Positions 15,360 to 49,870 are shown, counted from the stretch's first letter. The stretch is 64,000 bases of DNA from Cyanobacteria bacterium J06633_8 (GCA_039820645.1 JBCBPQ010000003.1:54913-118912); one strand, 5' to 3'. Notes: a model not told the origin generated them from the sequence alone. A program made the numbers and translations.

Positions 15360-15630
15360 GAATTCGAGATTATTGACTAGGAATTGATAGTTATTAGTGA
15401 AAAACTACTAACTACTCTGATTTCAGTATTCCCAATCCAAAATCATTATCAATAATTTCTAAAAAATAAGAAACAATGAAAACTCAAAATTCTCATAAAA
15501 TAGCGATTGAGGATACAACCACTAATTAAAATCTTTACCATGGAAAAAAGTAATGGGCGTTGGTAAGCCGGTTGAAATACATATCCTACGCCACTACCAC
15601 CGATTAACCGCGCCTTGCTAGAACAACTAT

Positions 15631-23294: not shown

Positions 23295-23302
23295 TCTCAA
23301 AT

Positions 23303-23390
23303 AAACCCGGTTTCTAGTCGTGAAAGTATTATTATCCGCGTCTTAAATCAGAAAGAAACCGGGTTTCTGCAACTGGTGCAAGATGTGAAA
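23303..23390. repeat. GAAACCCGGTTTC-type palindromic element, copy 1
   Basis: AAACCCGGTTTCT (23303-15) and AGAAACCGGGTTTCT (23354-68) are separated by about 40 nt, followed by the tail GTGCAAGATGTGAA. The same architecture occurs at 41312-41401, and an inverted copy at 42816-42879. Confidence 0.7.
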
Positions 23391-32558: not shown

Positions 32559-33755
32559 TTACCGCATCGAAACTACTGTTGGTGCATTTTGCAAATTATT
32601 GGCAACCTTTATTACTTCTTCTCTTGCCCATTTATCGGCTGTTAAAATGTCATCTAAGTTGGGATTTGAATTATTTTGTGCTTTATGACTCTCGCAGACT
32701 GTTTCGATGCAGCGAGGAATATCTAAAAAGTGAATTTTTTCTGATAAAAATAAGGCTACAGCTTGCTCGTTGGCTGCGTTTAAAACTGCTGGCATTGAGC
32801 CACCGGCTTTTCCGACAGCATAAGCCAGTTTCATACAAGGATACTTTTGATGATTGGGTTCTCGGAATGTTAATGAGCCAGCTTTGACTAAATCTAATCG
32901 TTCCCAGTCGGTATAAATACGCTCTGGATAAGATAAAGCATACAGCAGAGGTAGCCGCATATCAGCCCAACCCAACTGAGCTAAAACTGAAGTGTCTTGC
33001 AATTCAATTAATGAATGAATGATGCTTTGGGGATGAATAACAATTTCAATATCGTCATAATCTAATCCAAACAGGAAGTGCGCTTCAATTACTTCCAAAC
33101 CTTTATTCATTAAAGTTGCCGAATCTACTGTAATTTTACGTCCCATTGACCAATTAGGATGTTTAAGAGCATCGGCTACCGTCACATCAGCTAATTTTGC
33201 TACATCCCAATCGCGGAAAGCACCACCAGAGGCTGTAAGTATAATCTTGCGTAAAGCTCCTTCAGGAATACCTTGCAGACATTGAAAAATTGCAGAATGT
33301 TCTGAATCTGCGGGTAGCAGTTTAACTTGATGTTTTTCTATTAAAGGTAAAACTACTGGTGCCCCAGCAATTAAAGTTTCTTTATTGGCTAAAGCAATAT
33401 CTTTACCTGCTTTGATAGCGGCAATAGTAGGCAATAACCCAGCACAACCAACAATACCGGTAACTACAGTTTCAGCTTCTGCATAACGAGCAACTTCAAT
33501 AACACCATCTTCTCCCGTCAGTAAAGTTGGTTGATGCTGTAGGTCTTTGATTGCCTCTTTAAGTTGTGATAATTTACTTTCATCGGAAATTGCGACTATA
33601 CTCGGTTGAAACTGTCGAATCTGAGATGCTAACAATTCTACGTTGCGCCCTGCTGCTAATCCCACAATCCTAAACTGTTCGGGACATTGAGCAACAATAT
33701 CTAAAGTTTGAGTTCCTATAGAACCAGTAGAACCAATAAGAGTAATAGCTTTCAC
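32559..33755 (-). CDS. dxr: 1-deoxy-D-xylulose-5-phosphate reductoisomerase
   Basis: [23 protein letters not shown](T)[12 protein letters not shown] and [20 protein letters not shown]. Confidence 0.92.
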
Positions 33756-34141: not shown

Positions 34142-35434
34142 ATGACGAAAGTTGAGTTACAGAATAAGAAGAAGAAAGATTCAAAGACAAACGAATTATT
34201 ATTTCCTGCTGTAATCTGGTTCGGCAGTCGCTTGTTTATTTGGTTTGTATTGTTAGGGATTGCGCCTTTATTACAAGCACCCCCAGGAGGTATTAAAGCT
34301 ACATTTGGGTTGGAAGTATTTAATGCTTGGGATAGCGGACAGTATCAAAATATAATTAGCAACGGATATGAGTTTATTAATGATGGGAAAATGCATAATG
34401 TGGCATTTTTTCCATTATTCCCTCTAATCGTCAAGCTTTTAATGAGTTTAGGCTTTTCTTTTGAGATTGCGGGATTATTAGTCAATAATTTGGCGTTTTT
34501 AGGGGCTATTTACTGCGTATATTTTTGGGTAAAGTCATTTCTTGGCGAGAATGAAGCGCGATGGGCTACTGCTGTATTAGCTTGGTGTCCTACATCAATG
34601 TTTGCAGGGGTAATTTATACCGAAGGTTTGTATTTATTTTTAAGTGTTGCTGCGATGCAGGCTTTTGACAAAAGTCGATATGGCTTGACTGCTCTTTTTG
34701 GTGCCTTAGCAACCGCAACTAGACCTACAGGGTTAGCATTAATACCGGCTTTGATAATTTCATGTTGGAAACAACGCAAACCCCGGATTGCTTATATTTC
34801 CAGTTTAGCTACGGCAGGGGGAGTACTTTTATTTAGTCTTTACTGTGCAGTTAAATTCAGCGAGCCATTAGCTTTTATTGAAGCCCAGAAAGGATGGCGT
34901 GAATCTTTGGGGTTTGATTGGCAAAGCTGGTGGAAAATGTTGATGCAAATAACCATTGGTACTGAAAATTGGAAGTACGGAGGAATAAAAGATCTGGTAA
35001 CACCTTTATTATTTGCTTTAATTGTCATCCTTGCTTATTTATTATGGCGCTTCCGTGAAAACATAAGTAGCAAGTTCGGTGAAGCAAAAGTTGACTATGG
35101 TTTTGCGGCTTTAATTTTAATTTGGTGGCTGGTAGCTGGCGACCCTTTAATTAATACTGTATCAGTTATTGGCAGTGCTTATTTAATATGGAAACTACGC
35201 CATGAAATGAGTCCTGTAGCCGCAACCTACGGTTTATGTGGTTTAGCGTTGATTCTAGCTTCTGGAGGTACTTGGTCACTAAGTCGCATCGTTTACGGTA
35301 TTGTTTCAGTTAGCATCGCCTTCGGCATTTTCTTATCCCGTCATCCACGTTGGGGATATTTGACTATGGGTTTCTTTGCGATTTTACTCACAACTTTTTC
35401 CATTAGATTCGCTCAGCATTTGTGGGTGGGTTAA
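34142..35434 (+). CDS. Polytopic GT-C-type glycosyltransferase, PIG-V/mannosyltransferase-2-like (paralog A)
   Basis: About 10 TM helices. WDSGQYQNII.NGYEF......AFFPLFP in the first loop resembles the PIG-V-like family. By eye it is roughly 50 percent identical to 41526-42797. Confidence 0.6.
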   Translation: MTKVELQNKKKKDSKTNELLFPAVIWFGSRLFIWFVLLGIAPLLQAPPGGIKATFGLEVFNAWDSGQYQNIISNGYEFINDGKMHNVAFFPLFPLIVKLLMSLGFSFEIAGLLVNNLAFLGAIYCVYFWVKSFLGENEARWATAVLAWCPTSMFAGVIYTEGLYLFLSVAAMQAFDKSRYGLTALFGALATATRPTGLALIPALIISCWKQRKPRIAYISSLATAGGVLLFSLYCAVKFSEPLAFIEAQKGWRESLGFDWQSWWKMLMQITIGTENWKYGGIKDLVTPLLFALIVILAYLLWRFRENISSKFGEAKVDYGFAALILIWWLVAGDPLINTVSVIGSAYLIWKLRHEMSPVAATYGLCGLALILASGGTWSLSRIVYGIVSVSIAFGIFLSRHPRWGYLTMGFFAILLTTFSIRFAQHLWVG

Positions 35435-35450
35435 GAAAGACAAGGGGAAA

Positions 35451-35556
35451 TTAGGAGTGTACAGACGTAATAATGCTACATCTATACAGTTAGGAGTGTA
35501 GAGACGTAGCAGTGCTACGTCTGTAAAGTTAGGAGTTAGGAATTAGGAATTAGAGG
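35451..35556. repeat. Two tandem copies of the GTAGAGACGTAGC hairpin repeat followed by a TTAGGAG/TTAGGAA STRR
   Basis: TTAGGAGTGTACAGACGTAATAATGCTACATCTATACAG, then TTAGGAGTGTAGAGACGTAGCAGTGCTACGTCTGTAAAG, then heptamers. The same family occurs at 21465-21502. Confidence 0.75.
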
Positions 35557-35594
35557 ATGTTTTAAAAGTCTTCTTGTCGGTAATAAAACATTTT

Positions 35595-35738
35595 ATATCC
35601 CCCTAAATCCCCCTTTAGAAGGGGGACTTTGATTGCAATTTTCTCCCTTTATAAGGGGGAGTTTGATTGCGATTTCCCCCCTTTAGAAGGGGGAGTTTGA
35701 TTGCGATTCCCCCCTTTAGAAGGGGGCTAGGAGGGATT
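35595..35738. repeat. Tandem array (about 4 units, about 33-nt period) of a hairpin repeat
   Basis: The units are CCCCCTTTAGAAGGGGG(A/-)(C/G)TTTGATTGC(A/G)ATTT. Each has a 7-bp self-complementary stem, CCCCCTT / AAGGGGG. The terminal unit, ..GGGGGCTAGGAGGGATT, resembles 14296-14326. Confidence 0.8.
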
Positions 35739-35785
35739 AATAAGTGCAAGATACAACTAAACACTTTTTAAACAACCTCTTAAAT

Positions 35786-35838
35786 TTTAACCTTTAACCT
35801 TTAACCTTTAACCTTTAACCTTTAACCTTTAACCTTTT
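35786..35838. repeat. STRR heptamer repeat (TTTAACC)
   Basis: About 7.5 perfect contiguous units, ending 12 nt before the next start codon. Confidence 0.9.
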
Positions 35839-35850
35839 TCATGAATTCTA

Positions 35851-37227
35851 GTGAAAACAAAAATTATTCATCTGAGTGCTGTTGCAGCAACATTACTGTT
35901 TTTATGTAGCAGTTTGCGGCACTCGCTGTTCCAGTCGGGTGCTTTTGATTTAGGTATTTACGATCAAGTTGTTTACCTAATGAGTCAAGGAAAACCCCCT
36001 GTTCCTTCAACTTTGGGTTTTCATCATATGGGTAATCATGCAGCGTGGGCTGTTTATCCCTTAGCTTTGCTTTACAAAATTTATCCTAGTGCCTATTGGC
36101 TGTTAGGAGTACAAGCTGTTTCTTTAGCTTTGGGTGCCATTCCTACTTATTATCTAAGTAAACAAGCTGGACTGAAAGAAAATCAAGCCTTAACTATGTC
36201 GGCAGTTTATTTGCTGTACCCGCTGATTTTTAACGTTAATTTGTTTGAATTTCACCCGGAAGTGATGGCTATTCCGGTATTTTTAGGAGTAGTTTTAGCA
36301 GCGCGGCTTAACAAGATTTTTTGGTTTTGTACGGGAACTATTTTTATTTTGGGTTGTAAAGCGGTGTTATCTCTAACGGTAGCCGCGATGGGTTTATGGT
36401 TGTTAATTTTTGAAAAACGCCGCTTATGTGGTGTATTTGCCTTAATTGCTGGATGTGGGTGGTTTTTAATTGCTACTCAAGTTATTATCCCCAACTTTAG
36501 TAATAGTGAAGCAGCGGCTGTTGTTCGTTATAGCTATCTGGGTGATTCAGTTTTAGATATTATTGCTAATTTATTTTTAAAACCGGAATTGATATTAGGT
36601 AAAATATTTTCTTTAAAGACTTTAGAGTATTTAGCTTTAGTAATTGCACCAGTAATTTGGGGTTTAAGACCAAAATATCTTGCGCCTTTTATCGGCATTA
36701 TTCCGACATTAGTCATAAATATTCTTTCCGAAAAAACGACGCAACGGGATCTAATTCACCAATATTCTTTACCTATCTTGCCATTTTTAATTTTGGCTGT
36801 AATTTCTAGCTTAGCAGCCAAAAAATCTTGGCTGCGGAATCCAAAAAATATTTTGATATGGGCATTAGTGGGATTTTTGGCATTAGGAAAATATGCTTTT
36901 TTTTGGTCTCGCTATCTTAGAAGTATCGATACTTGGCAAGCAACGCGGCAAGCTATAGTCAAAATTGAAACTAAAGAAGCTGTTTTAACTACTCATAGTA
37001 TTGTTCCTCATTTAACTCATCGTTCAAATATTCAATTTGTAGATGATTTGAGTGGTGGAGTTCCAGATATTAATCAATTTAAATATATTCTGCTAAATGT
37101 GCGTCATCCTGATGGTACTCGCAATCCAGAATTTGCCGCTAATTTAGTCAATCAACTGAAAGACAATCAATTATTTGAATTAGTGCAAGAACGGGATGAG
37201 GTTTATTTATTTGTCAAAAAAAACTAA
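35851..37227 (+). CDS. DUF2079-family polytopic membrane protein (GT-C-like)
   Basis: GTG start. GAFDLGIYDQVVYLMSQGKPP.STLGFHHMGNHAAW..YPLALLY..P matches the DUF2079 N-terminal signature as I recall it. More than 10 TM helices and a soluble C-terminal domain. Confidence 0.65.
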   Translation: MKTKIIHLSAVAATLLFLCSSLRHSLFQSGAFDLGIYDQVVYLMSQGKPPVPSTLGFHHMGNHAAWAVYPLALLYKIYPSAYWLLGVQAVSLALGAIPTYYLSKQAGLKENQALTMSAVYLLYPLIFNVNLFEFHPEVMAIPVFLGVVLAARLNKIFWFCTGTIFILGCKAVLSLTVAAMGLWLLIFEKRRLCGVFALIAGCGWFLIATQVIIPNFSNSEAAAVVRYSYLGDSVLDIIANLFLKPELILGKIFSLKTLEYLALVIAPVIWGLRPKYLAPFIGIIPTLVINILSEKTTQRDLIHQYSLPILPFLILAVISSLAAKKSWLRNPKNILIWALVGFLALGKYAFFWSRYLRSIDTWQATRQAIVKIETKEAVLTTHSIVPHLTHRSNIQFVDDLSGGVPDINQFKYILLNVRHPDGTRNPEFAANLVNQLKDNQLFELVQERDEVYLFVKKN

Positions 37228-37295
37228 TTAATTATAATTCATGATTAATTCAATGAATCCCTTGCTTTTCCTATTTTTTTCTTTGTATTTACCAA

Positions 37296-38813
37296 ATGTT
37301 CAAAACTAAAAACTTTTTTTTCACTCTTTTCAGCATCATTCTTTTTGCTATATTTATTGTTGCGATTAGATTTGAACCAATCACCCAAAGCTTTGAATTA
37401 GATTACGATGAGGGACTCAATTTAATCAAAGCATTGCTTTATTCGCGAGGTTTTTCTTTTTATAGCCAAATATGGAACGATCAACCACCTATTTTCACAG
37501 TTATTTTGTCATCCTGGTTAAATTTATTCGGACAGTCTGTATTCGCAGCACGCCTGTTAACCCTACTTTTTTCATCACTATTAATATGGTGTTTTTATCA
37601 AATAATACGTCAAGACTTAGGCAATATACCTGCTTTATTAGCTACAGTTTTATTATTCACATCTTGGCTTTATATTCGTCTTAGTATTTCCGTAATGATA
37701 GGTCTTCCATCATTATCTTTGGCAATGCTTTCTATTTATCTTATATCACTCTATAAACAAAATAATTTTAAAAGGTATCTAATTTTTTCCGGCATTGCTT
37801 TTGCATTATCCTTACAAACAAAAGCATTTACCATATTCCTGACTCCCTTAATAATTATGTATCTATGGGATTTTGAAATTAATTTATCTCAAACTAAAAA
37901 ATCTCTAAATTTATTTTATTCTCTATTGCAGTGGATGGGTATTCTCTGCTTTACTTATATCACAATTGCATTAATATTTGGACAGTTTTCCCATCAAGAG
38001 CAATTAGTTCAAACTCACTTAAATCAACCTATCAACACTGAAATACAAAATTATAATAATTTATATTATCTAAATTATATGACTGCTCAAGACCGTGACT
38101 ATATATTTTTAGCAGTCATTGGCATATTGACGATTATATATAAAAAAAATAAAAATGGATTATTGCCCATCACCTGGCTTGCGACTTCTCTCTTAATTTT
38201 ATTATTTCATAAACCAATTTGGTACCATCATTATCATTTAATCTCTATTCCTATATGTTGGCTAGGTGCTTATGCCATTGCATCATTACTTGATTTATTA
38301 TCTCAAAATTGGCAAGGTAATCTGAAATCATTTTTTAAATCAATCAATTTATTCAACCTAATAATTATTAGTTTAATTAGCATCATTTTCGTATCCTTAA
38401 TATTTGCAACACCTCCAATTACAAAAGGAGGTCCACCAAAAGATTTGCAACTTTTAAAATTAGTAATCAAATACAAAAAATCTACAAACTGGGTATTTAC
38501 AGACCGTCCTATTTATGCATTTTATGCTAATTTACCCGTTCCCCCAGAAATGGCGGTTATATCATCAAAAAGAATTAATTTTGGAAAATTGACTCATCAA
38601 GAAATGCTAGCAATTCTCAAGCAATATCGTCCCGAACAAATCGTACTTGCAAGAATGGATTTTCACATACTAAATGACCCAGAGATTAGGAATTATGTCA
38701 ATAAGTATTATACAAAAACATACAGTAACAAAAAAGAGTTAAAACAACACGAACACTATATATTATCTAGTTTAATTAGTCAGAATAGGGTAAATTTGAG
38801 CCAAGGTAAATAA
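37296..38813 (+). CDS. ArnT/PMT-like (GT39/GT83-type) GT-C glycosyltransferase
   Basis: YDEGLNLIKALLYSRGF...W.DQPP in the first periplasmic loop, about 11 TM helices, and a soluble C-terminal domain. The gene is visibly more AT-rich (Ile/Leu/Asn/Lys/Phe-rich) than its neighbours. Confidence 0.6.
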   Translation: MFKTKNFFFTLFSIILFAIFIVAIRFEPITQSFELDYDEGLNLIKALLYSRGFSFYSQIWNDQPPIFTVILSSWLNLFGQSVFAARLLTLLFSSLLIWCFYQIIRQDLGNIPALLATVLLFTSWLYIRLSISVMIGLPSLSLAMLSIYLISLYKQNNFKRYLIFSGIAFALSLQTKAFTIFLTPLIIMYLWDFEINLSQTKKSLNLFYSLLQWMGILCFTYITIALIFGQFSHQEQLVQTHLNQPINTEIQNYNNLYYLNYMTAQDRDYIFLAVIGILTIIYKKNKNGLLPITWLATSLLILLFHKPIWYHHYHLISIPICWLGAYAIASLLDLLSQNWQGNLKSFFKSINLFNLIIISLISIIFVSLIFATPPITKGGPPKDLQLLKLVIKYKKSTNWVFTDRPIYAFYANLPVPPEMAVISSKRINFGKLTHQEMLAILKQYRPEQIVLARMDFHILNDPEIRNYVNKYYTKTYSNKKELKQHEHYILSSLISQNRVNLSQGK

Positions 38814-38828
38814 AAAAAAATTGCGCTG

Positions 38829-39602
38829 ATGGAAAAAGATTTTTATCTACAGTATGCATCTGTAGAAGATAAACATTGGTGGTTTGTGGCGCGTCGTCAA
38901 ATTATACAGCAAGTAATTTGTGGATTGAGTTTACCAAAAAATGCTCAAATTTTAGAAGCAGGTTGCGGTACCGGTGGTAACTTACAAATGTTATCCCGCT
39001 ACGGTGCCGTTTCAGCAATGGAATTAGATGAAGTTGCTTGTCACCTAGCAAATCAACGGCAAATAATTCAGGTAAAGCGAGGTCATTTACCAGATAAAAT
39101 TCCTTTCAATTCGTCTTATGACTTGATTTTGATACTAGATGTCATAGAACATCTTGATGATGATTTATCGGCCCTCGAAGCTTTGTATTATAAACTCAAA
39201 CCAGGAGGTTATTTGTTAGTTACGGTACCAGCCTACCAATTTTTATGGAGCGAGCATGATGAAATTAACCATCATAAACGCCGATATCGATTAAAAAATT
39301 TAAAAAATTTAGTCAAAAAAGCAAAATATCAAGTAAGTTACAGTAGTTACTTTAATACTTTACTATTTCCCCTAATTGCAATAGTACGTAGTTTAGCAAA
39401 GCTGTTACCAAAACAAAACAAACATGAACTTAGCAGCGATTTAGTTGTACCATCAAAAACAGTAAATAAATTTTTAAAATGGTTATTCGCCAGCGAACGC
39501 TATTTAATCGATAAATTTTCTCTACCTTTTGGCGTATCTATTTTGTTATTAGCAAGAAAACCCATTCCTATTAATGTAAGGGAATTGGGAATTGGGCATT
39601 AG
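38829..39602 (+). CDS. Class I SAM-dependent methyltransferase
   Basis: Motif I ILEAGCGTGGNL, post-I SAMELD, and LDVIEHLDDD. The C-terminal codons RELGIGH-stop are encoded by an STRR. Confidence 0.8.
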   Translation: MEKDFYLQYASVEDKHWWFVARRQIIQQVICGLSLPKNAQILEAGCGTGGNLQMLSRYGAVSAMELDEVACHLANQRQIIQVKRGHLPDKIPFNSSYDLILILDVIEHLDDDLSALEALYYKLKPGGYLLVTVPAYQFLWSEHDEINHHKRRYRLKNLKNLVKKAKYQVSYSSYFNTLLFPLIAIVRSLAKLLPKQNKHELSSDLVVPSKTVNKFLKWLFASERYLIDKFSLPFGVSILLLARKPIPINVRELGIGH

Positions 39603-39690
39603 TAACTAGTAACTGCTAACTGCGCGCCTGTTAACTTTCATGGTACTTTTAACTGTCATGGTACTGTTCACTGTTAACTGCTAACTGACT
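39578..39690. repeat. STRR-type heptamer repeats (GGGAATT, TAACTAG/TAACTGC variants)
   Basis: Degenerate contiguous 7-nt units spanning the methyltransferase stop and the intergenic gap. Confidence 0.65.
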
Positions 39691-39694
39691 AAAG

Positions 39695-40666
39695 ATGACT
39701 CAACCAATAGTGTCGATAATTATCCCAATTTATAACGAACAGGAAAATATTTCCGAACTTTACCGTCGTTTGGAAGTCGTTATCAAACAGCTAGATGCTG
39801 AGAGACAAAGTGAGACAGAATTAATCTTTGTTGATGATGGTAGTCGGGATAATTCTTTAAATTTAATACGTGAAATTTACAATCGCGATTATCGGGTTAA
39901 TTACATCAGTTTAGCCCGTAACTTTGGTCATCAAATAGCTGTAACGGCAGGTTTAAATCATGTTCGTGGTAAAGTTATAGTCGTAATGGATGCCGATTTA
40001 CAAGACCCCCCAGAACTAATTTTGCCAATGGTAAATAAATGGCAACAAGGCTATCAAGTTGTTTACGCTCAACGTATATCTCGTAAGAAAGAAAGTATCT
40101 TAAAACGGTTTACAGCCTATGCTTTTTATCGTATTTTAAGACGTTTAGCTGATGTAAATATACCTGCCGATACAGGTGATTTCTGCCTAATGGATAGGGA
40201 GGTTGTTGATATTCTCAATGCCATGCCAGAACGCAATCGTTACATACGCGGTTTGCGGGCTTGGGTAGGTTTTCGACAAACAGCGATACCATTTGAAAGA
40301 GACCCCCGTTTTGCTGGTAAAGTAAAGTATTCATTTGCTAAGTCTTGGGCTTTAGCTATTAATGGAATTATTTCTTTTTCAAGAGTTCCTTTGAAACTTG
40401 CTACTTATTTAGGAATGCTTTCAGCAGTGGCTGCTTTATTAATGATATTGTTGGTTTTATATTGGCGTTTATTTGACCCCGCTTCTCCTTTAATTGGCTA
40501 CACTTTGATTACAATTGCACTGTTTTTCTTAGGCTCGGTACAATTATTTTGTATTGGTATTTTAGGCGAATATATTGGTCGTATTTACGAAGAAGTAAAA
40601 GGTCGTCCTATTTATACTGTAAAAGAAATGCGCGGGGTTCTAAATAGGGAAAGAGTTCGCAGTTAA
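39695..40666 (+). CDS. Polyprenyl-phosphate glycosyltransferase, GT2 (ArnC/GtrB/DPM1-like)
   Basis: [33 protein letters not shown] and DADLQDPPE, plus two C-terminal TM helices ending ..[20 protein letters not shown]. This architecture is typical of ArnC/GtrB. Confidence 0.85.
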
Positions 40667-40715
40667 GAATTGCTAATAAGAAGAATAAATAATTAGAAGT
40701 TAGGAGCGAATGACA

Positions 40716-40815
40716 AGTAGTTAACAACTAACAACTAACAAATAACAACTAACAACTAACAACTAACAACTAACAACTAACAAATAACAACTAACAACTA
40801 ACAACTAACAACTAA
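40716..40815. repeat. STRR heptamer repeat (ACAACTA / ACAAATA)
   Basis: About 14 contiguous units. The same heptamer family appears at 45037-45120 and inside gltB. Confidence 0.9.
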
Positions 40816-40822
40816 AATTCAT

Positions 40823-41191
40823 ATGTCTTGGCAAGAATTTTGTTTGCTGCTTTTGTCAGTTTCTGCAAGTGTAACGGGACAGTTATTTTTGAAAATAGGT
40901 GCGGGAAAATTAGGAAGAGTTGATGCAGTTAATGCTTTAAAGCAGATTTTGGGTATTATCGCAACCCCGGAATTATTAATAGGTTTAGCTTGTTATGGCA
41001 TCGGCGCTGTTGTTTATATTCTTTTGCTAACTAGAGTTAATTTAAGTGTTGCAGGTCCATCGGCTTCTCTAGTTTACGTTTTTTCTGTATTAATAGGCTA
41101 TTTTATTTTTAAAGAATCGATTCCTTTGATGCGTTTTGGTGGTTTAAGTTTAATTGTTTGTGGAGTTATATTAGTAGTCTGGCAAAAGTAA
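40823..41191 (+). CDS. Small 4-TM EamA/SMR-like transporter (ArnE/ArnF-like candidate flippase)
   Basis: 122 aa with four hydrophobic helices. Its size and its position directly after the ArnC-like GT2 mirror arnE/arnF. Confidence 0.55.
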   Translation: MSWQEFCLLLLSVSASVTGQLFLKIGAGKLGRVDAVNALKQILGIIATPELLIGLACYGIGAVVYILLLTRVNLSVAGPSASLVYVFSVLIGYFIFKESIPLMRFGGLSLIVCGVILVVWQK

Positions 41192-41311
41192 ACTTTAAAA
41201 TTATTTGTTATTTATTCCTTCTTTGATATTTCTTATCTCGTAGATAGAATTATTTAAATTTAATTAATTAAATAGCAGCTAAACACATATTTTGATTCTC
41301 AACAAGCACAA

Positions 41312-41401
41312 AGAAACCGGGTTTCTCCAAACTTAAAGCATAATTATTTCGTTGAGTGATTTGCAAGAAACCCGGTTTCTCGTCGAAGTGCAAGATATGA
41401 A
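41312..41401. repeat. GAAACCCGGTTTC-type palindromic element, copy 2
   Basis: AGAAACCGGGTTTCT (41312-26), about 40 nt, then AGAAACCCGGTTTCT (41366-80) and the tail CGTCGAAGTGCAAGATATGAA. It is in the same orientation as copy 1. Confidence 0.7.
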
Positions 41402-41525
41402 CAAAGCTTCTTGCTAAACAAAATTCCAAGACTGATATTTATCTGATTTTATAATTTGCGCTCTCTACACAATTATGATTACTTATTTATAAAGCATAAA
41501 TAAAACATGAATCAGTGTTATTTCA

Positions 41526-42797
41526 ATGAGTCAATCGAAAAAGATTTTAAATAATGCCCTAAATAATGGCCTAATTTTTGCTACAGCAATGTGGTTTTTT
41601 AGCCGAATAGCGATCGTTGTTGCAATGTTGTTAATTGCACCTTTACTTCCAGTAGCCGAAAATGCCCAAGCTCCTATTTATGGATGGGATGTTTTCTACG
41701 CATGGGATAGCATTTGGTATCATCGAATTGTAGTTGTTGGCTACGAATTTGTTAATGATGGCAAACAATATTCTGTAGCTTTTTTTCCATTATTACCTTT
41801 ATTGACTCGTGTAATTATGTACTCTGGCTTGCCTTTTCAGGTGGCTGCCACCCTAATAAATAATGCCGCCTTTTTAGGTGCATTAATTGTTTTTTATTCT
41901 TGGGTAAACGAAAGCCACGGTAAAAATGCAGCCCGTTGGAGTACTGCTGTTTTAGCATGGTGTCCTTATTCTCTTTATGGAACTGTAATTTATACTGAAG
42001 GATTGTTTTTATTATTTAGTATTGCTGCCTTGCAAGCTTTCGATAAAAAACAGCATTTATCAGCAGCGGTTTGGGGAATTTTATCTACAGCAACCAGAAT
42101 TACTGGAGTCATGTTGATTCCAGCTTTTTTATATGTTGCTTGGAAACAAGGTAGAAGTTTACAAGCTTATGTATCTGCCTTAGCTGTCGGTACCGGTGCT
42201 TTTCTTTTTAGTCTGTATTGCCTGATAAAATTTGGTGATGCTTTAGCATTTGTTCACGTGCAAAAAGGTTGGCGAGAATCAACCGGATTTGCTCGTGAAG
42301 GTTGGTGGAATATGTTGATGCAAATTGTCCAAAGTTCTCCACTATTATTTGGATTAATTATTGTTAGCGGTTTTTTATTATGGCGCTTTCGTCAACAGTT
42401 AATTGATATTAAGCTACGTAGTTTATTTTATTTTTTGTGGCTACTGTTATGGTTGGGTATAGGTGAACCTTTATGGTTAACACAAGGAAATCCATTTGGA
42501 AAAATTCCTTTAGTTAAGATAGTGATTGTCTTCGGCGGACTTTATTTATTGTGGCGATCGCGAGGTAAAATTCCTTTGGTTGCTTTGGTTTACGGTTTCT
42601 TTTCCTACGGTTTAATTCTAAATACCGGACTTACAGCTTCTGTAGAGCGCTATGCTTATGGAATTGTCTCCCTGTCTTTTGCATTGGGGCTTTGTTGTAA
42701 TCGTTATCGTGCTTGGGGCTATGCCATTACAGCATTTTTCGCAGTTTTATTAGCAAGTTTAGCCGTGCAATTCGCTCACAATCAATGGGTGGCTTAA
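41526..42797 (+). CDS. Polytopic GT-C-type glycosyltransferase, PIG-V-like (paralog B)
   Basis: WDSIWYHRIVVVGYEF......AFFPLLP, plus long collinear similarity to 34142-35434 (for example AVLAWCPYSLYGTVIYTEGLFLLFSIAALQAFDKK versus AVLAWCPTSMFAGVIYTEGLYLFLSVAAMQAFDKS). Confidence 0.6.
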   Translation: MSQSKKILNNALNNGLIFATAMWFFSRIAIVVAMLLIAPLLPVAENAQAPIYGWDVFYAWDSIWYHRIVVVGYEFVNDGKQYSVAFFPLLPLLTRVIMYSGLPFQVAATLINNAAFLGALIVFYSWVNESHGKNAARWSTAVLAWCPYSLYGTVIYTEGLFLLFSIAALQAFDKKQHLSAAVWGILSTATRITGVMLIPAFLYVAWKQGRSLQAYVSALAVGTGAFLFSLYCLIKFGDALAFVHVQKGWRESTGFAREGWWNMLMQIVQSSPLLFGLIIVSGFLLWRFRQQLIDIKLRSLFYFLWLLLWLGIGEPLWLTQGNPFGKIPLVKIVIVFGGLYLLWRSRGKIPLVALVYGFFSYGLILNTGLTASVERYAYGIVSLSFALGLCCNRYRAWGYAITAFFAVLLASLAVQFAHNQWVA

Positions 42798-42815
42798 AAG
42801 TTTAATTAGCCTCCG

Positions 42816-42879
42816 CAAACCCGGTGTCTTATTGATTTCACAACCAGATTAATACTTTCACTAGAAGAAACCGGGTTTG
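42816..42879. repeat. GAAACCCGGTTTC-type palindromic element, copy 3 (inverted, truncated)
   Basis: Its reverse complement, CAAACCCGGTTTCTTCTAGTGAAAGTATTA.., aligns with copy 1 (AAACCCGGTTTCTAGTCGTGAAAGTATTA..). It starts 19 nt after the stop of paralog B. Confidence 0.6.
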
Positions 42880-43778
42880 TTTGTATATTTAGTAAGTCGT
42901 TTTTGTATTGAATTGAGCCTACTTTACTTACCTAGAATAATTTCGCTAGCTTCAAATAATAAATTTTATCCAAAAAAAGAAAGCTATATATCTAGCAATA
43001 ACCATACTATAGAAAACTAGCTTTTATTCTTCTAGTAAAGAAATATATATATGTATTTTGTATTACAAGAACAATAGCCTGAAAATGCTTAAATAAATTT
43101 ATATTTTCATGCAAATCTAGAAAAATATTACTATACACTAGCAACTTCAGTGTTTATACTGTCTGCATATATTTGTGTATTTGTCATTATTAAGATGTTA
43201 TTACTTTGACTTGTTTCTATTTAAAATAAATGTATAAAAATTTTTTTTCAAATAAAAAACTCAGTAGATATTTAATTAGTAAAAAGCTGAAATATATAGT
43301 ACTCATGTATTTGAGATAGTAGTGTAAATAATAGAATCTTTAAATGTAAATTGCTTTGCGAATATCTAGATTTGACGTAAGCCTATCTTCTGACTAGGTG
43401 AAACCAAATTATCCCGAGTCGCGTCTTGTGGAAATGTTCGAGTTACGAAGTAAGCATTGTCAGGAAAAATTTTAACCTTTTTTTAAATGGGAATATTATT
43501 CTCAAAAGGTAAAATAAACCTGAGTAATAGTTAAACTTATACTTGATGTGTCGTGTATCTGCTTATTGCTAGCTGTAAAAATATTTAGTTAATCAAATTT
43601 ACCATTTAGAGTCAAATTAGTCTGTATCTATCCGCCTCCAAAGGCGAATTTCTGTTAACCTGTGTTTAATTTTTCAGGATTACTAGAGATTAACCAGGTA
43701 ACAATGAAATAGAGAAATTGTGTTATAACTTACCGTCATATCCGTGATGGCGGTTTGGTCGTGAAGGAGCCGTGTCTG

Positions 43779-44693
43779 GTGGAAAATAAGAAGTCGTTAG
43801 CTTTACCTCAAGGAATATTAATCGCCCTTACCGCCTTATGTGGTAGTTTCGCGCTCGGATTTATGCTGCCCATCAACAGGGATACTACTAATGTAACTAC
43901 CAAGCAGCAAATAAAAAGTCAAAATATCAAAGCCACATCTGTCTCCCTATCTCGTATAAAAGATTTTCAAGGTGCAATGCTTGCCACTTGGGAACGGGAA
44001 GCCATATCTAAAGGAGTCTTCCATACTGTGCCTAAAAGCTTTCATGGCACAACTATAAAAGAAGCCAAGCTTGCTGCAAATGATAAATTGATCGCTTTAA
44101 CCTTTGATGATGGGCCTTGGCCGGGATATACTGCCCAGATATTAGACATATTGAAAAAAAATAATATCAAAGCAACGTTTTTTGTTGTCGGACAAGTACT
44201 ACAGAACTATCCCGATTTAGGCAAGCGAATAGTAACCGAAGGTCATATTATCGGCAATCATACTTGGAATCATTGGTACCATTTTTTCAACAAACAAGCC
44301 GCAGCAGTAGAAATTGACCGTACTTCAGACTTAATTTATAAAACCACAGGTACTAAAACTACTCTATTTCGTCCCCCTGGTGGAATGCTACATAATGGTT
44401 TGGCCGCTTATGCAAAAAGTAAAGATTATACCGTGGTAATGTGGTCGGCTGATTCAATTGATTATGCTCTTCCTTCACCTCCCACTTTGGTAAATAGAGT
44501 TGTTAGACAAGCTACCCCCGGTGGCATTGTACTGTTGCATGATGGTGGTGGTCCTCGTAAAAACACTGTTGCGGCTCTACCATCGATGATAAGCAAGTTG
44601 AGAAATAAAGGTTATCGTTTTGTGACAATTACAGAATTACTGGAGCATCAAGAAAAACAGAAAAAGACTCTTACAGCACAAAATACGAAATAG
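43779..44693 (+). CDS. Polysaccharide deacetylase (NodB homology domain) with an N-terminal membrane anchor
   Basis: ALTFDDGPW, GHIIGNHTWNH, LFRPPGG and VLLHDGGG. The track start is TTG 43755. The in-frame GTG at 43779 follows AAGGAG with a 9-nt spacer and is preferred. Confidence 0.85.
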   Translation: MENKKSLALPQGILIALTALCGSFALGFMLPINRDTTNVTTKQQIKSQNIKATSVSLSRIKDFQGAMLATWEREAISKGVFHTVPKSFHGTTIKEAKLAANDKLIALTFDDGPWPGYTAQILDILKKNNIKATFFVVGQVLQNYPDLGKRIVTEGHIIGNHTWNHWYHFFNKQAAAVEIDRTSDLIYKTTGTKTTLFRPPGGMLHNGLAAYAKSKDYTVVMWSADSIDYALPSPPTLVNRVVRQATPGGIVLLHDGGGPRKNTVAALPSMISKLRNKGYRFVTITELLEHQEKQKKTLTAQNTK

Positions 44694-45121: not shown

Positions 45122-48100
45122 CTACAAAACCTTACTCAATTCCTTTTGTTTAGTATTAGCTTGGAGAGAAGCAGCTTCAGAAGGAGGTACTACTTGCCAG
45201 AATTTTGGTAGGAATTCTTGCCAGTTATCCAAAATCATTTTCGCTTTAACCGATTCTGTACGTTCAAAATGAGCGGTTATCAAATCCTTGAGTTGCTTTT
45301 CTCCTGCGTCTGTAACTACTCTTTGAATATTTACGATTTCTGGATTTACTAGTTGGGGGAAGCTACCATCTTCATCTAGAAAATATCCCAATCCACCAGT
45401 CATTCCAGCACCAACATTACGCCCAACTGCACCCAAGACTACGATTACACCACCAGTCATGTATTCGCAACAATGATCCCCGGCTCCTTCAATTACAGCC
45501 GTACCCTTAGAGTTACGCACCGCAAAACGTTCGCCAGCTTTACCTCTAGCAAATAACATTCCACCGGTTGCACCGTAAAGGCAGGTATTGCCAATTATCA
45601 CATTTTGAGATGGATCGTAAGTTGCGATGCTTGGTGGTTTAATTGTAATTTCTCCACCGTTCATTCCCTTACCTACGTAATCATTAGCTTCTCCCAACAA
45701 TGTTAAAGTCATTCCAGGAAGATTGAAAGCACCAAAACTTTGTCCGACGCTGCCAGTAAAGGTAAGGTTGATTTGACCTTTGAAACCGTTATCCCCATAT
45801 TTAGACGCGATAGCTCCAGCAATGCGTGCCCCTATGGTTCGATCTGTATTAACCGCAGTTACTGTTTTATTTATTTGGGAATGTCTGTCAATGGCGTTTT
45901 GAATTTCAACATCCGCTAATAAATCATCATCGAGAACAGTACCGTTGCTGTGAACTACTTCGTGTTGCAACCAGCTACGATTTTCTCTGGTATCGGGTAA
46001 CTTCAACAGGCAATCAAGATTTAATGCTTTTGTCTTGGTTAATTGGGCATCTTCGCGCATTTTCATTAAGTCAGCACGTCCAATTACTTCCGAAAGACTT
46101 GCATAACCAAACTTTGCTAACAGACTGCGTACTTCTTCAGCAATAAAGTAGAAGAAATTAACTACTTTTTCTGGGGTTCCGGGGAAGCGTTTTCGTAATT
46201 CTTCCCTCTGGGAAGCAACACCTACAGGGCAGCTATTTAAATGACATACCCGCGCCATAATACAACCTTCGGCAATCATAGCAATGGAACCAAAACCAAA
46301 TTCTTCGGCTCCCATCATTGCTGCCATTAAAATATCCCAACCAGTCTTTAAACCGCCGTCTACGCGCAAAATCACTCGATCGCGCAGGCTATTTTCCATT
46401 AGAACTCGATGTACTTCACTTAAACCCAGCTCCCAAGGAGAACCGGCGTGCTTAATAGAACTTAGGGGAGATGCTCCCGTTCCACCATCATGACCGGAAA
46501 TCTGGATAATATCGGCATTGGCTTTAGCTACACCAGCAGCAATAGTTCCGATACCGATTTCCGATACCAGTTTCACCGAAACTTGAGCTTTAGGATTAAT
46601 TTGATGTAAATCAAAAATTAACTGTGCCAAGTCTTCAATCGAATAAATATCGTGATGCGGTGGTGGAGAAATTAAAGTCACTCCAGGTTTGGAACGTCTT
46701 AAGCTAGCAATATATTCGCTAACTTTTTTACCCGGTAACTGTCCCCCTTCTCCGGGTTTTGCACCTTGAGCCATCTTAATTTCAATTTGCTTGCCGCTCA
46801 TCAGGTACTGTGGAGTTACACCAAAGCGTCCCGATGCAACTTGCTTGATGGCACTCGAAGCAGTATCGCCGTTACGCAAACCATTTAAATGAGGTAAAGT
46901 TGCTGAATGTCCCGTTTCATTAACATTACTTAAAGTTTTAAAACGTATGGGGTCTTCACCACCTTCACCTGAATTAGACTTTCCGCCAAGACGATTCATG
47001 GCGATCGCCAGGGTTTCATGTGCTTCTCGTGACAATGCTCCTAGTGACATTCCACCAGTACAGAAGCGCTTGACGATTTCGCTTACCGGCTCTACTTCTT
47101 CAATAGAAATAGGCTTTCTGTCGCTTTGAAACTCAATTAAATCCCGTAATGCGGTTATCGGTCTCCCTTGCAAATGCTTTTGATAAACTTCGTAATGGTC
47201 GTAATTTTTACTATCAACAGCTTGGTGGAGTGCTTTCGCCATTTGCGGGCTGTTCATATGGTATTCGCCACCGCGACGATACTGAACAAAACCCAAGTTT
47301 TCTAACTTTTTGGCGTTTAATTCAGGGAAGGCTTTGCAGTGTATCGATAAAACTTCCTGGGCTAATTCTATGAGGCTAATTCCGCCAATCCGGGAAGTAG
47401 TACCTTCAAATCCTAAATCTAACAAATCTCTACCAATACCAATAGCTTCAAAAATTTGCGCTCCTTGGTAACTAGTCAGCAGCGAAATTCCCATTTTAGA
47501 AAGGATTTTCAGTAAACCGTTTTCTACAGCCTTGGCATAATTAGCTAGGGATTTCTCCAAACTTACAGCTGCAATTTTACCCCGCTCCATAAACTGCTGA
47601 GTTTTGGGATCTGACCACCAGCTACGTAAAGTATCCAAAGCCATATAGGGACAAACCGCAGCCGCACCGAATCCAATCAAGCAAGCGAAATGATGGGTAC
47701 TCCAACATTGAGCGGTATTAACCACCAAAGAAGCATTCATTCGCAATCCTTCATGAATTAAATGGTGATGTACTGCACCTACCGCCAATAAAGGAGGAAT
47801 GTAAGTATTTTCTGCATCTATTGCCCCATACTCTTGCCACTCTTGGGAATTCCGATCAACTTTATCGCTCAATACCAAAATCTTCGCACCATTACGCACA
47901 GCTTCCACCGCTTGCTTTTGCAAAGACTCCACAGCAGCTTTTAAACCTTCCCGTCCGCTGCTAATCGGAAATACCGTTGATAATTCAACCGTATCAAAAT
48001 CCGACTTTTGTATTTCTTGTAATTGAGCCTCAGTTAATACCGGCGATTCCAACTTGAAACGGCGAGCATATTCGGGTTTGGGGTCAAGTAAATTACCTCT

Positions 48101-49870
48101 TGCACCTAATTCTACCTTCAACGACATCACCAATTTTTCTCGTAAGGGGTCGATTGGTGGATTTGTTACTTGGGCAAACCGCTGTTTGAAATAGTCATAC
48201 AGTAAATGTGGTTTTCCAGAAAGTACCGCTAGAGGGATATCATCGCCCATACAAAAAGTGGGTTCTTTAGCATCAATTGCCATTGGTTGAATTATCATTT
48301 CCACATCTTCTGTGGTGTAACCAAAAGCCATTTGATTTCGCAACAAAGCTTTTCGATCTATTGAGTTAGCTGGTAGTTGTTGGTTGTTAGTTGTTAGTTG
48401 ATGGTTGTTAGTAGCTGAATGTCCATTTCCATTCGCACCGTTACCATTCGCACCATTTCCATTCCTAACAGTTAACTGCTCACTGTTCAATGATTTCCGA
48501 TGCTGTTGTAACCATTCCCCATAAGGATTAGCTTTAGCAACTCGCTGTTTAATTTGCCAATTTTTGAGAATTTCGTGGTTTTGCAAATCCACGGCAATCA
48601 TTTCTCCAGGACCAAGGCGACCTTTTTCAATAATATCTTCTTCACTGAAATCAACCACACCAGCTTCAGAAGCAACCACAATGTAGTCATCCGATGTTAT
48701 GTAGTAACGGGCAGGTCTCAATCCATTACGGTCTAAAGTTGCACCAACCGTCTTACCGTCGCTAAATACTAAAAGTGCCGGGCCATCCCAAGCTTCCTGT
48801 AATCCGCTGTAGTATTCGTAAAAGTCAACAATCTCAGGATAATTACTTAAAGCTGGTTGATGACGATAAGCTTCCGGAACCATTATCATCAATGCTTCCA
48901 AAGGACTGCGTCCGGAATGCACCTGCAACTCAAATACGTTATCTAAAGTTGCAGAATCGCTGTTACCTATACGCACAAAAGGCTTTAATTCTTCCAAGCG
49001 CTGCTTCCAAACTGGATGATTTAAACTCCCTTGTCTGGCTTTCATCCAGTTGATATTACCTAGTAACGTATTAATTTCTCCATTGTGACCTAACAGCCGC
49101 ATCGGTTGAGCTAAAGGCCATTTAGGCATTGTATTCGTACTAAAACGGCGATGGTAAACAACAAAACTGCTCTTATAAGCAGGATTTGTTAAATCTAAAT
49201 AGAAATCTCCCAATACAGCCGAACGCACCATTCCCTTGTAAACAATTGTCCTGCTTGATAGGGAACAGACATAAAATTCCTCCATCCAGTCGCTGTGTTG
49301 AGAACGAATCGCTTTGACAATTCGACGACGGGTAATATAAAGCTTTCTCTCTAACTCATCTCCACTCAAATCTTCTGACTGGAGAAAAATCTGTTCGATT
49401 TGCGGTTTATTTTCCTTAGCTTGCACTCCCAAAACGCTGTCATCTACAGGAACCACGCGCCATCCCAACACCTTCAAATTCTCAGAAAGCGCAATCTGTT
49501 CCACAATACCCCGTGCAGCATGAGCGGCTTGTTCGTCACGAGGTAAAAACAACATCCCTACAGCGATATTCTTTTCCGTTGCAGTTTCCAAACCCCTATA
49601 CTTCCAATCTTGTTGCAACAATTGCCAAGGGATGGCGCTTAATATTCCCGCACCATCACCAGAATCTCGATCTGCGCTACAACCACCCCTGTGTTCCAAA
49701 CAGGTTAACGCAACCAATCCTTTTGCCAAGATTTCATGACTTTCTTGCTGTTTGCGATGAGCAATGAAACCCACCCCGCAAGCGTCTCTCTCTTCGACTA
49801 ACCACTTTTGCCCTAAAAAAGTATCTGAAAATGCTATGTCGTTATCTTGATTCATCTGCTTGTTATTCAT
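45122..49870 (-). CDS. gltB: Ferredoxin-dependent glutamate synthase (Fd-GOGAT)
   Basis: 1582 aa. Ntn amidotransferase start [14 protein letters not shown]/Fe-S central and synthase domains ([36 protein letters not shown]), and a C-terminal GXGXG beta-helix. There is no NADPH small subunit next door, which fits the Fd type. Confidence 0.95.

Follow-up and report, generated by a model that had tools for sequence, protein, structure and literature searches.

The general scheme of three-component periplasmic glycosylation, in which a polyprenyl-phosphate sugar synthase is combined with a small flippase and a GT-C glycosyltransferase at the outer face, is established knowledge (summarised in PMC13390465). 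GtrB of Synechocystis sp. PCC 6803 (sll0501; PDB 5EKP) makes Und-P-glucose from UDP-glucose (PMC4728340), and no downstream partner of sll0501 in Synechocystis was named in the literature searched. Here, we analysed a window of 64,000 nucleotides (the whole stretch of DNA examined, GCA_039820645.1 JBCBPQ010000003.1:54913-118912) from Cyanobacteria bacterium J06633_8, a Rivularia-like cyanobacterium with an 8.3-Mb genome. The original prediction had assigned the general scheme to an island in this window, and the families, folds, and catalytic residues found there fit it; the route had also been called undescribed for cyanobacteria, and our literature search found no description. We regard the island as an addition to the known three-component systems, with unstudied enzyme families.

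Gene content of the island

The predicted seven co-directional genes and downstream NodB gene were all found as open reading frames on the + strand, the profile matches agreed with the family proposed for each of the eight, and the repeat arrays said to separate the genes were located in three gaps. The features are as follows (Pfam cut-off for PF04188, PIG-V: 22.4 bits):

32559..33755, - strand: dxr (Dxr equivalog, 574 bits), left boundary gene of the slot, outside the system
34142..35434, + strand: PigV_A, GT-C glycosyltransferase, PIG-V-like (GT76-like), of the clade that adjoins dxr (PF04188, 40.3 bits)
35451..35837, no strand: repeat block in the PigV_A/DUF2079 gap, holding 39-nt and heptamer repeats along with three to four 34-nt hairpin units
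35851..37227, + strand: DUF2079 membrane protein of predicted GT-C fold, with a small C-terminal alpha/beta domain (PF09852, 6.9e-92)
37296..38813, + strand: PMT2, PMT_2-family (ArnT/PMT-like) putative GT-C (PF13231, 1.1e-14)
38829..39602, + strand: class I SAM methyltransferase, cytoplasmic (Methyltransf_23/11/12/25)
39631-39687: repeat array in the methyltransferase/GT2 gap (position from the repeat search)
39695..40666, + strand: GtrB-like polyprenyl-phosphate hexose synthase, GT2 (Glycos_transf_2, 2.8e-35)
40722..40815, no strand: heptamer repeat array, TAACAAC x13, in the gap between GT2 and the flippase candidate
40823..41191, + strand: 4-TM EamA/TMEM234-type membrane protein, 122 aa (PF10639, 32.5 bits; PF00892, 32.2 bits)
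41526..42797, + strand: PigV_B, PIG-V-like GT-C of the GT2-linked clade (PF04188, 24.6 bits)
43755..44693, + strand: membrane-anchored NodB-type deacetylase (Polysacc_deac_1, PF01522, 9.8e-35)
45122..49870, - strand: gltB (1582-aa ORF), right boundary gene of the slot, outside the system

The genome's sole GtrB-like GT2, both of its PigV copies, its sole PMT2 homologue, and one of its two DUF2079 genes lie in the island, a clustering that exceeds chance. Since the DUF2079/PMT2, PMT2/methyltransferase, and methyltransferase/GT2 gaps measure just 68, 15, and 92 nt, these four genes may be co-transcribed, judging by spacing. The hairpins of the block at 35451-35837 scored as terminator-like, and the RNA contigs of Chlorogloeopsis were interrupted at the PigV_A/DUF2079 junction, matching the position of the block, which is probably a transcript boundary. 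In that organism, one contig of 6.2-8.1 kb covered DUF2079-DUF2079-PMT2-PigV, apart from the contig carrying dxr and PigV_A.

Protein families and predicted folds

The GT2 aligned with Synechocystis GtrB at 311 bits and 45% identity, compared to 160 bits for the ArnC sequence in the PDB, and it reached 176 bits against the NCBIfam ArnC equivalog (cut-off 529). A separate ArnC-like paralogue, encoded on contig C368, scored 246 bits with the ArnC model. These results ruled out ArnC as the identity of the island enzyme: of the proposed ArnC/GtrB type, the GtrB part stood and the ArnC part fell, and the description of the island as Arn-like was not upheld. Residues D99-A-D101 (the DXD motif of the GT-A domain), D162, R127, and R205 aligned with their GtrB counterparts and were invariant in 33 relatives; D162 aligned with the catalytic D157 of GtrB, and R127 and R205 with its phosphate-binding R122 and R200. 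Hydropathy peaks at 237-255 and 271-289 marked two C-terminal TM helices, and the alignment with 5EKP continued through both. The best NCBIfam match was PgfS of Streptococcus mutans protein glycosylation (295 bits, below the 500-bit cut-off). A search of the phylum gave an island GT2 subfamily at 61-81% identity to the island enzyme and a second subfamily at 45-52%, which probably holds sll0501. By homology, the product is most likely Und-P-glucose; GlcNAc or another hexose is possible, since the sugar is deduced from a 45%-identical enzyme of the sister subfamily.

The methyltransferase showed no TM segment by hydropathy, and, of the 19 genomes with an orthologue, 7 have its gene directly beside a GtrB-like GT2, two deep-branching lineages included; it is coupled to the GT2. 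The 4-TM gene follows the GT2 in most GT2-bearing Nostocales islands, and a 65%-identical paralogue of its product is encoded in another polysaccharide locus of the genome. Its four hydrophobic segments agreed with the "ArnE-like" label of the original prediction, but membership of that family did not hold, leaving a resemblance: the protein scored 34 and 32 bits against the ArnE and ArnF models (cut-offs 92 and 99), and the island carries one such gene, compared to the two side-by-side subunits of the ArnE/ArnF heterodimer. From weak family matches and gene position, it is a candidate flippase for the lipid-linked sugar. The NodB protein, anchored in the membrane at its N-terminus, gave its best NCBIfam scores with the peptidoglycan GlcNAc deacetylases PdaB (186.7 bits, cut-off 237.4) and PgdA (157 bits, cut-off 400), both below the equivalog cut-offs, so neither identity was accepted.

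PigV_A and PigV_B, the only two PIG-V-like proteins of the genome, are 45% identical, about 430 aa in size, and devoid of a sizeable soluble domain according to the AlphaFold2 model and hydropathy. The PigV_A model (pLDDT 80, pTM 0.81) was compared using Foldseek, and all 22 matches at E<=1e-3 were GT-C enzymes (TM 0.39-0.48), PimE and GPI mannosyltransferase I among them. The predicted structure thus points to a GT-C fold for PigV_A, as originally claimed, and the same fold is expected for PigV_B from their identity. The PF04188 match, though above the Pfam cut-off, spans only profile positions 55-211 of 443, and the PigV proteins had no sequence match among solved structures. For the DUF2079 protein (model pLDDT 74), originally called GT-C-like, the 16 best Foldseek matches (E<=0.006) were all GT-C enzymes with TM 0.35-0.50, headed by ALG12, STT3, DPY19, and PglB at 0.46-0.50, and the model supports a GT-C fold. 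PMT2 is placed as a putative GT-C by its Pfam PMT_2 match, and it gave no match to the ArnT model among the NCBIfam profiles. Its gene is AT-rich (GC 0.296 vs 0.371 for the genome), evolves fast, and is missing from most close Rivularia relatives. The lack of acidic residues in the first loop had been named as grounds for abandoning the prediction; such residues were invariant after TM1 in all four GT-C proteins, namely D64 of the invariant W63-D64 pair in PigV, D33 of DUF2079 in 68/68 sequences (D38 in 67/68), and D36, D38, and E39 of PMT2 in 18/18.

Variation of the slot and use of the donor

The island occupies a slot, dxr...NodB-gltB, that is common to heterocystous cyanobacteria. In most Nostocales loci dxr adjoins a PigV gene, and gltB beside NodB is conserved in relatives. 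NodB marks the right side of the slot in loci with and without a GT2 alike; it is a constant boundary gene, and its functional link to the island is at most a possibility. The 43 loci with both flanks displayed 18 gene orders and 2-6 GT-C-like genes per slot; the GT-C content has been shuffled between lineages, which fits diversification of a cell-surface glycan, and the slot resembles a surface-glycan diversity locus. The synteny expected in Nostocales was found in part: the seven-gene order recurred in Rivularia MS3 and Spirirestis, but among PigV clades only that of PigV_B tracks the GT2. In this clade, 20 of the 22 rows lay within 2.5 kb of a GT2, while 75 of the 100 rows of the A superclade, to which PigV_A belongs, came from loci without one. 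By hand tally, about 26 of the 75 PigV-positive genomes, from at least six families, had PigV-like and GtrB-like genes <=15 kb apart, and a bare PigV->GT2 pair stood amid housekeeping genes in two other cyanobacterial families. The pairing is frequent, not obligate, because GtrB-like genes also occurred without PigV (4 of 30 genomes of the organism's own family) or beside another GT-C type (GT87 plus DedA in Tolypothrix).

We consider it fairly probable that the island is composite, with a GtrB-centred three-component unit and three further GT-C enzymes working at the periplasmic face from lipid-linked donors. Unit 1 (38829-42797) would be a self-contained system of methyltransferase, GT2, 4-TM protein, and PigV_B. 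Within it, the GT2 would make a polyprenyl-phosphate hexose at the cytoplasmic face, the methyltransferase may act on the same side, perhaps on a nucleotide- or lipid-linked sugar, and the 4-TM EamA/SMR-like protein would flip the donor. PigV_B, a small GT-C that lacks a large soluble domain and probably uses the GT2 product, would then pass the sugar to a membrane-anchored acceptor; our best guess is a lipid-anchored surface glycan, either LPS/O-antigen or an Und-PP-linked polysaccharide unit. Unit 2 (34142-38813) would comprise PigV_A, DUF2079, and PMT2, which must be able to take another donor, such as the one that the conserved ArnC-like GT2 at another locus would make, because their orthologues occur in genomes without a GtrB-like gene.

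The original prediction had a single donor from the island GT2 feeding all four GT-C enzymes, which would build or decorate one envelope polymer stepwise. The shared direction of the genes, the 15-92 nt gaps from DUF2079 to GT2, the order kept in Rivularia MS3 (L003) and Spirirestis (L016), and the varied GT-C partners served by cyanobacterial GtrB-like enzymes all favour this idea. However, four Nostocales genomes (Fischerella, Scytonema, HT-58-2, and Cylindrospermum) carry PigV_A/DUF2079/PMT2 islands in the same slot with zero GtrB-like genes genome-wide, and close Rivularia relatives lack PMT2, or PMT2 and DUF2079, but have MTase-GT2-flippase-PigV_B. Together with the confinement of GT2 linkage to the PigV_B clade, these patterns speak against a donor common to up to four transferases, and we hold it to be unlikely. 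PigV_A, DUF2079, and PMT2 are not obligate users of the GT2 donor because they are present in Nostocales lacking a GtrB-like gene; in the J06633_8 genome, the GT2 product could additionally serve them.

Two other explanations concern the acceptor. In protein O-glycosylation, the GT-C enzymes would act on secreted proteins such as pilins or S-layer proteins, in the manner of PMT, TfpW, or streptococcal Pgf. PgfS as the best GT2 profile and the membership of protein O-mannosyltransferases in PMT_2 agree with this; yet the PgfS score is well under its cut-off, no candidate acceptor protein gene was found in or beside the slot in the 43 loci, and, by analogy with PimE and PIG-V, lipid-anchored acceptors would better suit PigV proteins without a sizeable soluble domain, making a protein acceptor improbable. 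A modification of lipid A or core of the Arn/Lgm type would have the GT2 make Und-P-HexNAc, NodB deacetylate it, and a GT-C add the flipped amino sugar to lipid A. The NodB deacetylase superfamily includes ArnD of the Arn pathway, three further Nostocaceae genomes carry the GT2, flippase, and NodB genes one after another in a single direction, and a PMT_2/ArnT-like GT-C is present. Against this, the GT2 is far nearer to glucose-specific GtrB than to ArnC, the anchored NodB best matches peptidoglycan deacetylases and also sits in slots without GT2, and PMT2, unmatched by the ArnT model, is absent from most relatives that have the GT2 unit; we judge this route very improbable.

Relation to known glycosylation systems

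A more speculative view, to which we give little credence, is that the dxr-gltB slot is a serotype-like glycan diversity locus in which the conserved methyltransferase-GtrB pair makes a carrier-bound O-methylated hexose that the PIG-V-like GT-C installs. If so, this locus of heterocystous cyanobacteria would gain and lose cassettes from at least eight GT-C-like families, varying the surface glycan, for example under cyanophage or grazer pressure. O-methylation would occur while the hexose remains on the polyprenyl-phosphate carrier; we know of no precedent for methylating a sugar donor there. It would also give the structurally well-studied cyanobacterial GtrB family its first physiological partner.

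The composite island that we favour shares most with the GtrA/GtrB/Gtr(type) systems of O-antigen glucosylation (Shigella, Salmonella phages) and the CsbB/GtcA/YfhO systems of Gram-positive bacteria. As in these, a GT2 for polyprenyl-phosphate monosaccharides with two C-terminal TM helices, here a clear GtrB-family member, adjoins a small membrane protein (the candidate flippase) and a GT-C with a first-loop Asp. Unlike in these, an EamA/SMR-like 4-TM protein takes the place of GtrA as flippase candidate, a PIG-V-like (GT76-like) enzyme stands in for the Gtr-type or YfhO GT-C, and a methyltransferase and three extra GT-C genes lie alongside; in contrast to phage-borne Gtr, the locus is chromosomal and ancient. 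Compared with Synechocystis GtrB, the GT2 has the same family and architecture and retains the catalytic Asp together with the two Arg that bind phosphate, but is only 45% identical.

With the Arn pathway of lipid A aminoarabinose (ArnC, ArnD, ArnE/F, ArnT), the island shares its overall logic, a weakly ArnE/F-like small protein, a nearby NodB-superfamily enzyme, and a PMT_2/ArnT-like GT-C. However, its GT2 is not of the ArnC type, a true ArnC-like paralogue is encoded at another locus, neither the ArnE/F nor the ArnC scores come near their cut-offs, and the island has no genes for making aminoarabinose. Eukaryotic PIG-V/Gpi18 (GT76) and mycobacterial PimE (GT87) are small GT-C mannosyltransferases acting on glycolipids; to our knowledge, the GPI pathway is absent in bacteria. 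PigV resembles them in scoring above the PF04188 cut-off, in its similar size, and in its predicted all-membrane GT-C fold, and it differs in that the profile match is partial and the donor synthase linked to it resembles GtrB, not a mannose-phosphate-polyprenol synthase.

Gene content, intergenic sequence, and transcript evidence

ORF calling on the window placed seven co-directional ORFs and a downstream NodB-domain gene where the original prediction had located them, and searches with Pfam and NCBIfam confirmed the predicted families.

Genes of the island and its flanks
32559-33755, minus strand: dxr, flank of the island
34142-42797, plus strand: the seven island genes, in the order PigV_A, DUF2079, PMT2, MTase, GT2, small membrane protein, PigV_B
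PigV_A and PigV_B: two PIG-V-like proteins (PF04188, 40.3 and 24.6 bits; cut-off 22.4)
DUF2079: Pfam match spanning the full length (6.9e-92)
PMT2: PMT_2 family (Pfam, 1.1e-14)
MTase: class I SAM methyltransferase (Pfam/NCBIfam)
GT2: GT2 enzyme (family call via Pfam/NCBIfam)
Small membrane protein: 122 aa, TMEM234/EamA-type (Pfam/NCBIfam)
43755-44693: NodB-domain deacetylase, 312-aa ORF (Pfam/NCBIfam)
45122-49870, minus strand: gltB, flank of the island

The two PIG-V-like paralogues are 45% identical to each other. The closest relatives are Rivularia strains (about 90% identity to PCC 7116). The small membrane protein has four hydrophobic segments; its score lies far under the ArnE/ArnF cut-offs, which reduces its earlier description as ArnE-like to a resemblance.

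The intergenic repeat arrays described previously are present. A 390-nt block of hairpins and heptamer repeats separates PigV_A from DUF2079, its hairpin array scoring as terminator-like, and heptamer arrays precede the genes for GT2 and the small membrane protein. Rfam searches of the intergenic gaps returned no RNA element (the single match was a spurious miRNA), and a promoter scan performed no better than on shuffled sequence (48 sites vs 45 expected). The AT-rich gap of 957 nt upstream of NodB (42798-43754) contained no credible ORF, none exceeding 47 aa, and no Rfam match. A palindromic element, GAAACCCGGTTTC, flanks PigV_B (41313-41379 and 42867-42879), with another copy at 23302-23367; its eight matches in the window (0.06 expected) may represent a small mobile or regulatory repeat.

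The window derives from a marine metagenome bin. The sequencing runs found to match it were marine metagenome DNA only, with no RNA run among them, and transcript evidence comes from relatives as unstranded assembled contigs, which are weak evidence. In RNA assemblies of Chlorogloeopsis fritschii, one contig of 6.2-8.1 kb carried DUF2079-DUF2079-PMT2-PigV at a word depth of 35-65, and dxr and PigV_A lay on a separate contig at 240-276. These contigs fit, weakly, a co-transcription of the inner GT-C genes with a boundary after PigV_A, the same junction that bears the terminator-like hairpin array in the window. A metatranscriptome mapped on a relative of 3.8 Mb gave a depth of 12-18 for GT2 and the small membrane protein vs 120 for dxr. 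At locus L104 of the 3.8-Mb Nostocaceae genome, a depth spike of about 1176 (12-58 in adjoining bins) was observed between the flippase gene and NodB (15442-15958), which could reflect an abundant small RNA, repetitive sequence, or sequence from another organism.

Fold and active-site residues of the putative transferases

Sequence searches of solved structures returned no relative of PigV, DUF2079, or PMT2; two of the proteins were therefore modelled and submitted to fold searches. For the PigV_A model (pLDDT 80, pTM 0.81), all 22 Foldseek matches at E<=1e-3 were GT-C enzymes (STT3, PglB, AglB, ALG9, ArnT), with PimE, AftB, and GPI mannosyltransferase I ranking just under this set and TM-scores of about 0.4-0.48. 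The DUF2079 model (pLDDT 74, pTM 0.72), which includes a small C-terminal alpha/beta domain, best matched ALG12, STT3, DPY19, and PglB (TM 0.46-0.50). When the residues directly after TM1 were examined, acidic positions were found in all four GT-C proteins: D64, invariant in the PigV family; D33 (68/68 sequences) and D38 (67/68) in DUF2079; and D36, D38, and E39 in 18/18 PMT2 sequences. Loss of these first-loop acids would have spoken against the GT-C reading of the original prediction, and they are retained.

Horizontal transfer of PMT2 was considered. Its GC content is 0.296 (genome, 0.371), a level as low as this occurring in only 1.4% of windows of 1.5 kb. At third codon positions, however, the gene and its neighbours have equal GC, so the low value points to amino-acid composition more than to foreign origin, and transfer was rejected.

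Among solved structures, GT2 matched Synechocystis GtrB (sll0501, 5EKP) better than ArnC (311 vs 160 bits). It keeps the DAD motif, and D162, R127, and R205 correspond to GtrB D157, R122, and R200, aligning with the catalytic Asp and the phosphate-binding Arg residues, respectively. The earlier ArnC/GtrB-type assignment thus held on the GtrB side and failed on the ArnC side. The demonstrated product of GtrB is Und-P-glucose (PMC4728340). The island enzyme is only 45% identical to Synechocystis GtrB, and the matches listed from 301 genomes of the phylum form two GtrB-like subfamilies, with 61-81% and 45-52% identity to it, sll0501 probably belonging to the latter. Glucose would consequently be the likeliest sugar loaded, though not an established one.

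A search of the source genome found no second GtrB-like gene. On a different contig the genome encodes a distinct ArnC-like GT2, which scores 246 bits against the ArnC model. In other Nostocales (L107 8543-11369 and L108 7137-9827, two compared loci), the ArnC-like gene has a conserved neighbourhood comprising a beta-lactamase-like protein, an NlpC/P60 cell-wall peptidase, an MFS transporter, and MoaC, with no GT-C gene adjoining. The source genome also harbours a second polysaccharide locus (contig C1:77000-90000; L103 5488-17655) with four GT4 genes, two GT2 genes (one short, 237 aa), a GDP-mannose 4,6-dehydratase, a methyltransferase, a paralogue of the island flippase candidate (65% identical), and a 685-aa membrane protein lacking a Pfam match, for which profile comparison found no similarity to PigV or DUF2079.

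Variable slot content and linkage of PigV to the donor synthase

A scan of species-representative genomes yielded 77 loci, all in heterocystous cyanobacteria, and nearly all that reached far enough showed the order dxr, PigV gene, variable genes, NodB, gltB. Between these flanks the content varied widely: 18 gene orders were counted among the 43 loci with both flanks, each slot containing 2-6 GT-C-like genes. Some slots have an additional PMT_2 protein encoded on the opposite strand, and four polytopic proteins without Pfam matches (389, 460, 517, and 825 aa) also occurred. Even close Rivularia relatives, with PigV_A 82-86% identical, lacked PMT2, and some of them DUF2079 as well. Relatives that possess the MTase-GT2-flippase-PigV_B unit include Cylindrospermum stagnale PCC 7417 and Calothrix sp. 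NIES-4101. The slot of the 3.8-Mb Nostocaceae genome still contains five GT-C-like genes, GT2, the small membrane protein, and NodB.

Phylogenetic analysis of 127 PigV-like proteins resolved two clades. PigV_B falls in a clade of 22 sequences (support 96), 20 of which are encoded within 2.5 kb of a GT2 gene; three-quarters of the PigV_A superclade (75 of 100 sequences; support 96) come from loci without GT2. Four Nostocales genomes (Fischerella PCC 9431, HT-58-2, Scytonema NIES-4073, and Cylindrospermum FACHB-282) carry PigV/DUF2079(/PMT2) islands with no GtrB-like gene anywhere, only an ArnC-like one. PigV_A, DUF2079, and PMT2 can therefore do without the island GT2, and their orthologues in these genomes speak against the proposal that one donor feeds up to four GT-C enzymes. 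The island is composite.

PigV-like genes were present in 75 of 301 sampled genomes, including 31 of 38 in the organism's own family and others in many further families. By a hand tally of the matches listed, at least about 26 of the 75, from at least six families, have a PigV-like gene and a GtrB-like gene no more than 15 kb apart, a count inflated by related genomes, against a random-pair expectation below 1%. In two non-heterocystous families, a bare PigV-GT2 pair lies amid unrelated housekeeping genes. Judged from these sequence comparisons, the association is old. It is not obligate: among the matches listed, 4 of 30 genomes of the own family had GT2 but no PigV. The MTase gene is rarer (19/301 genomes) and, among the matches listed, directly adjoins a GtrB-like GT2 gene in seven of the 19, two lineages that branch deeply in the phylum among them; comparison with the PDB returned only generic class I relatives, with no hint of its substrate.

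Other arrangements were also seen. In Tolypothrix tenuis PCC 7101 (L093 9083-12284), genes for a GtrB-like GT2, a DedA/VTT-domain protein, and a GT87-family GT-C stand in a row at a distance of 690 kb from the slot, which gives the same synthase a different three-gene context. At L096 8583-9800, in the genome of a non-heterocystous cyanobacterium, the PigV-like gene and GT2 are separated by an inserted transposase gene of the IS605 OrfB/TnpB type, and several congeners have PigV pseudogenes beside an intact GT2.

Proposed mechanism and relation to known systems

We propose that GT2 places a hexose on undecaprenyl phosphate, the four-TM protein flips this donor, and PigV_B transfers the sugar. 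The MTase, which lacks TM segments and depends on cytoplasmic SAM, would act before export, perhaps on the nucleotide- or lipid-linked sugar. PimE and PIG-V act on glycolipids, and the PigV proteins resemble them in size (about 430 aa) and nearly complete membrane embedding; by this analogy we favour a lipid-anchored acceptor, for instance LPS or a glycan unit linked to Und-PP. PigV_A, DUF2079, and PMT2 would be additional outer-face transferases, perhaps sharing the donor here and elsewhere having to use another, which might come from the orphan ArnC-like synthase.

An Arn/Lgm-like pathway including NodB has a low probability. The NodB gene follows GT2 and the flippase gene directly in some genomes, which keeps this reading alive; it also adjoins the slot with or without GT2, and because the protein best resembles peptidoglycan deacetylases, its link to the system is unproven. 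A heterocyst-specific role was rejected, as other cyanobacterial families, some members having genomes of about 3 Mb, likewise carry PigV-like genes and the PigV-GT2 pair.

Cyanobacterial surface glycans govern phage adsorption, grazing resistance, and sheath and biofilm properties. The data supply concrete gene sets that lend themselves to testing: a GtrB-like synthase and a PIG-V-like GT-C as conserved genomic partners across several families, an MTase repeatedly travelling with the synthase, and a slot whose GT-C content differs even among close relatives. Slot variability and MTase-synthase coupling are the best leads. The system would supply first functions for DUF2079 and for the PIG-V-like proteins of bacteria, two large GT-C families so far uncharacterised. 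The literature searched contained no paper mentioning DUF2079, no functional study of the island genes in cyanobacteria, and no periplasmic lipid-linked-sugar glycosylation route described for this phylum, in agreement with the novelty originally claimed.

The island follows the same logic as the three-component periplasmic glycosylation systems summarised in PMC13390465. It departs from them in several respects: an EamA/SMR-like protein replaces the GtrA-type flippase, the GT-C is PIG-V-like, an MTase is attached, extra GT-C genes are present, and the whole lies in an ancient slot of the chromosome whose content turns over in the manner of cassettes.
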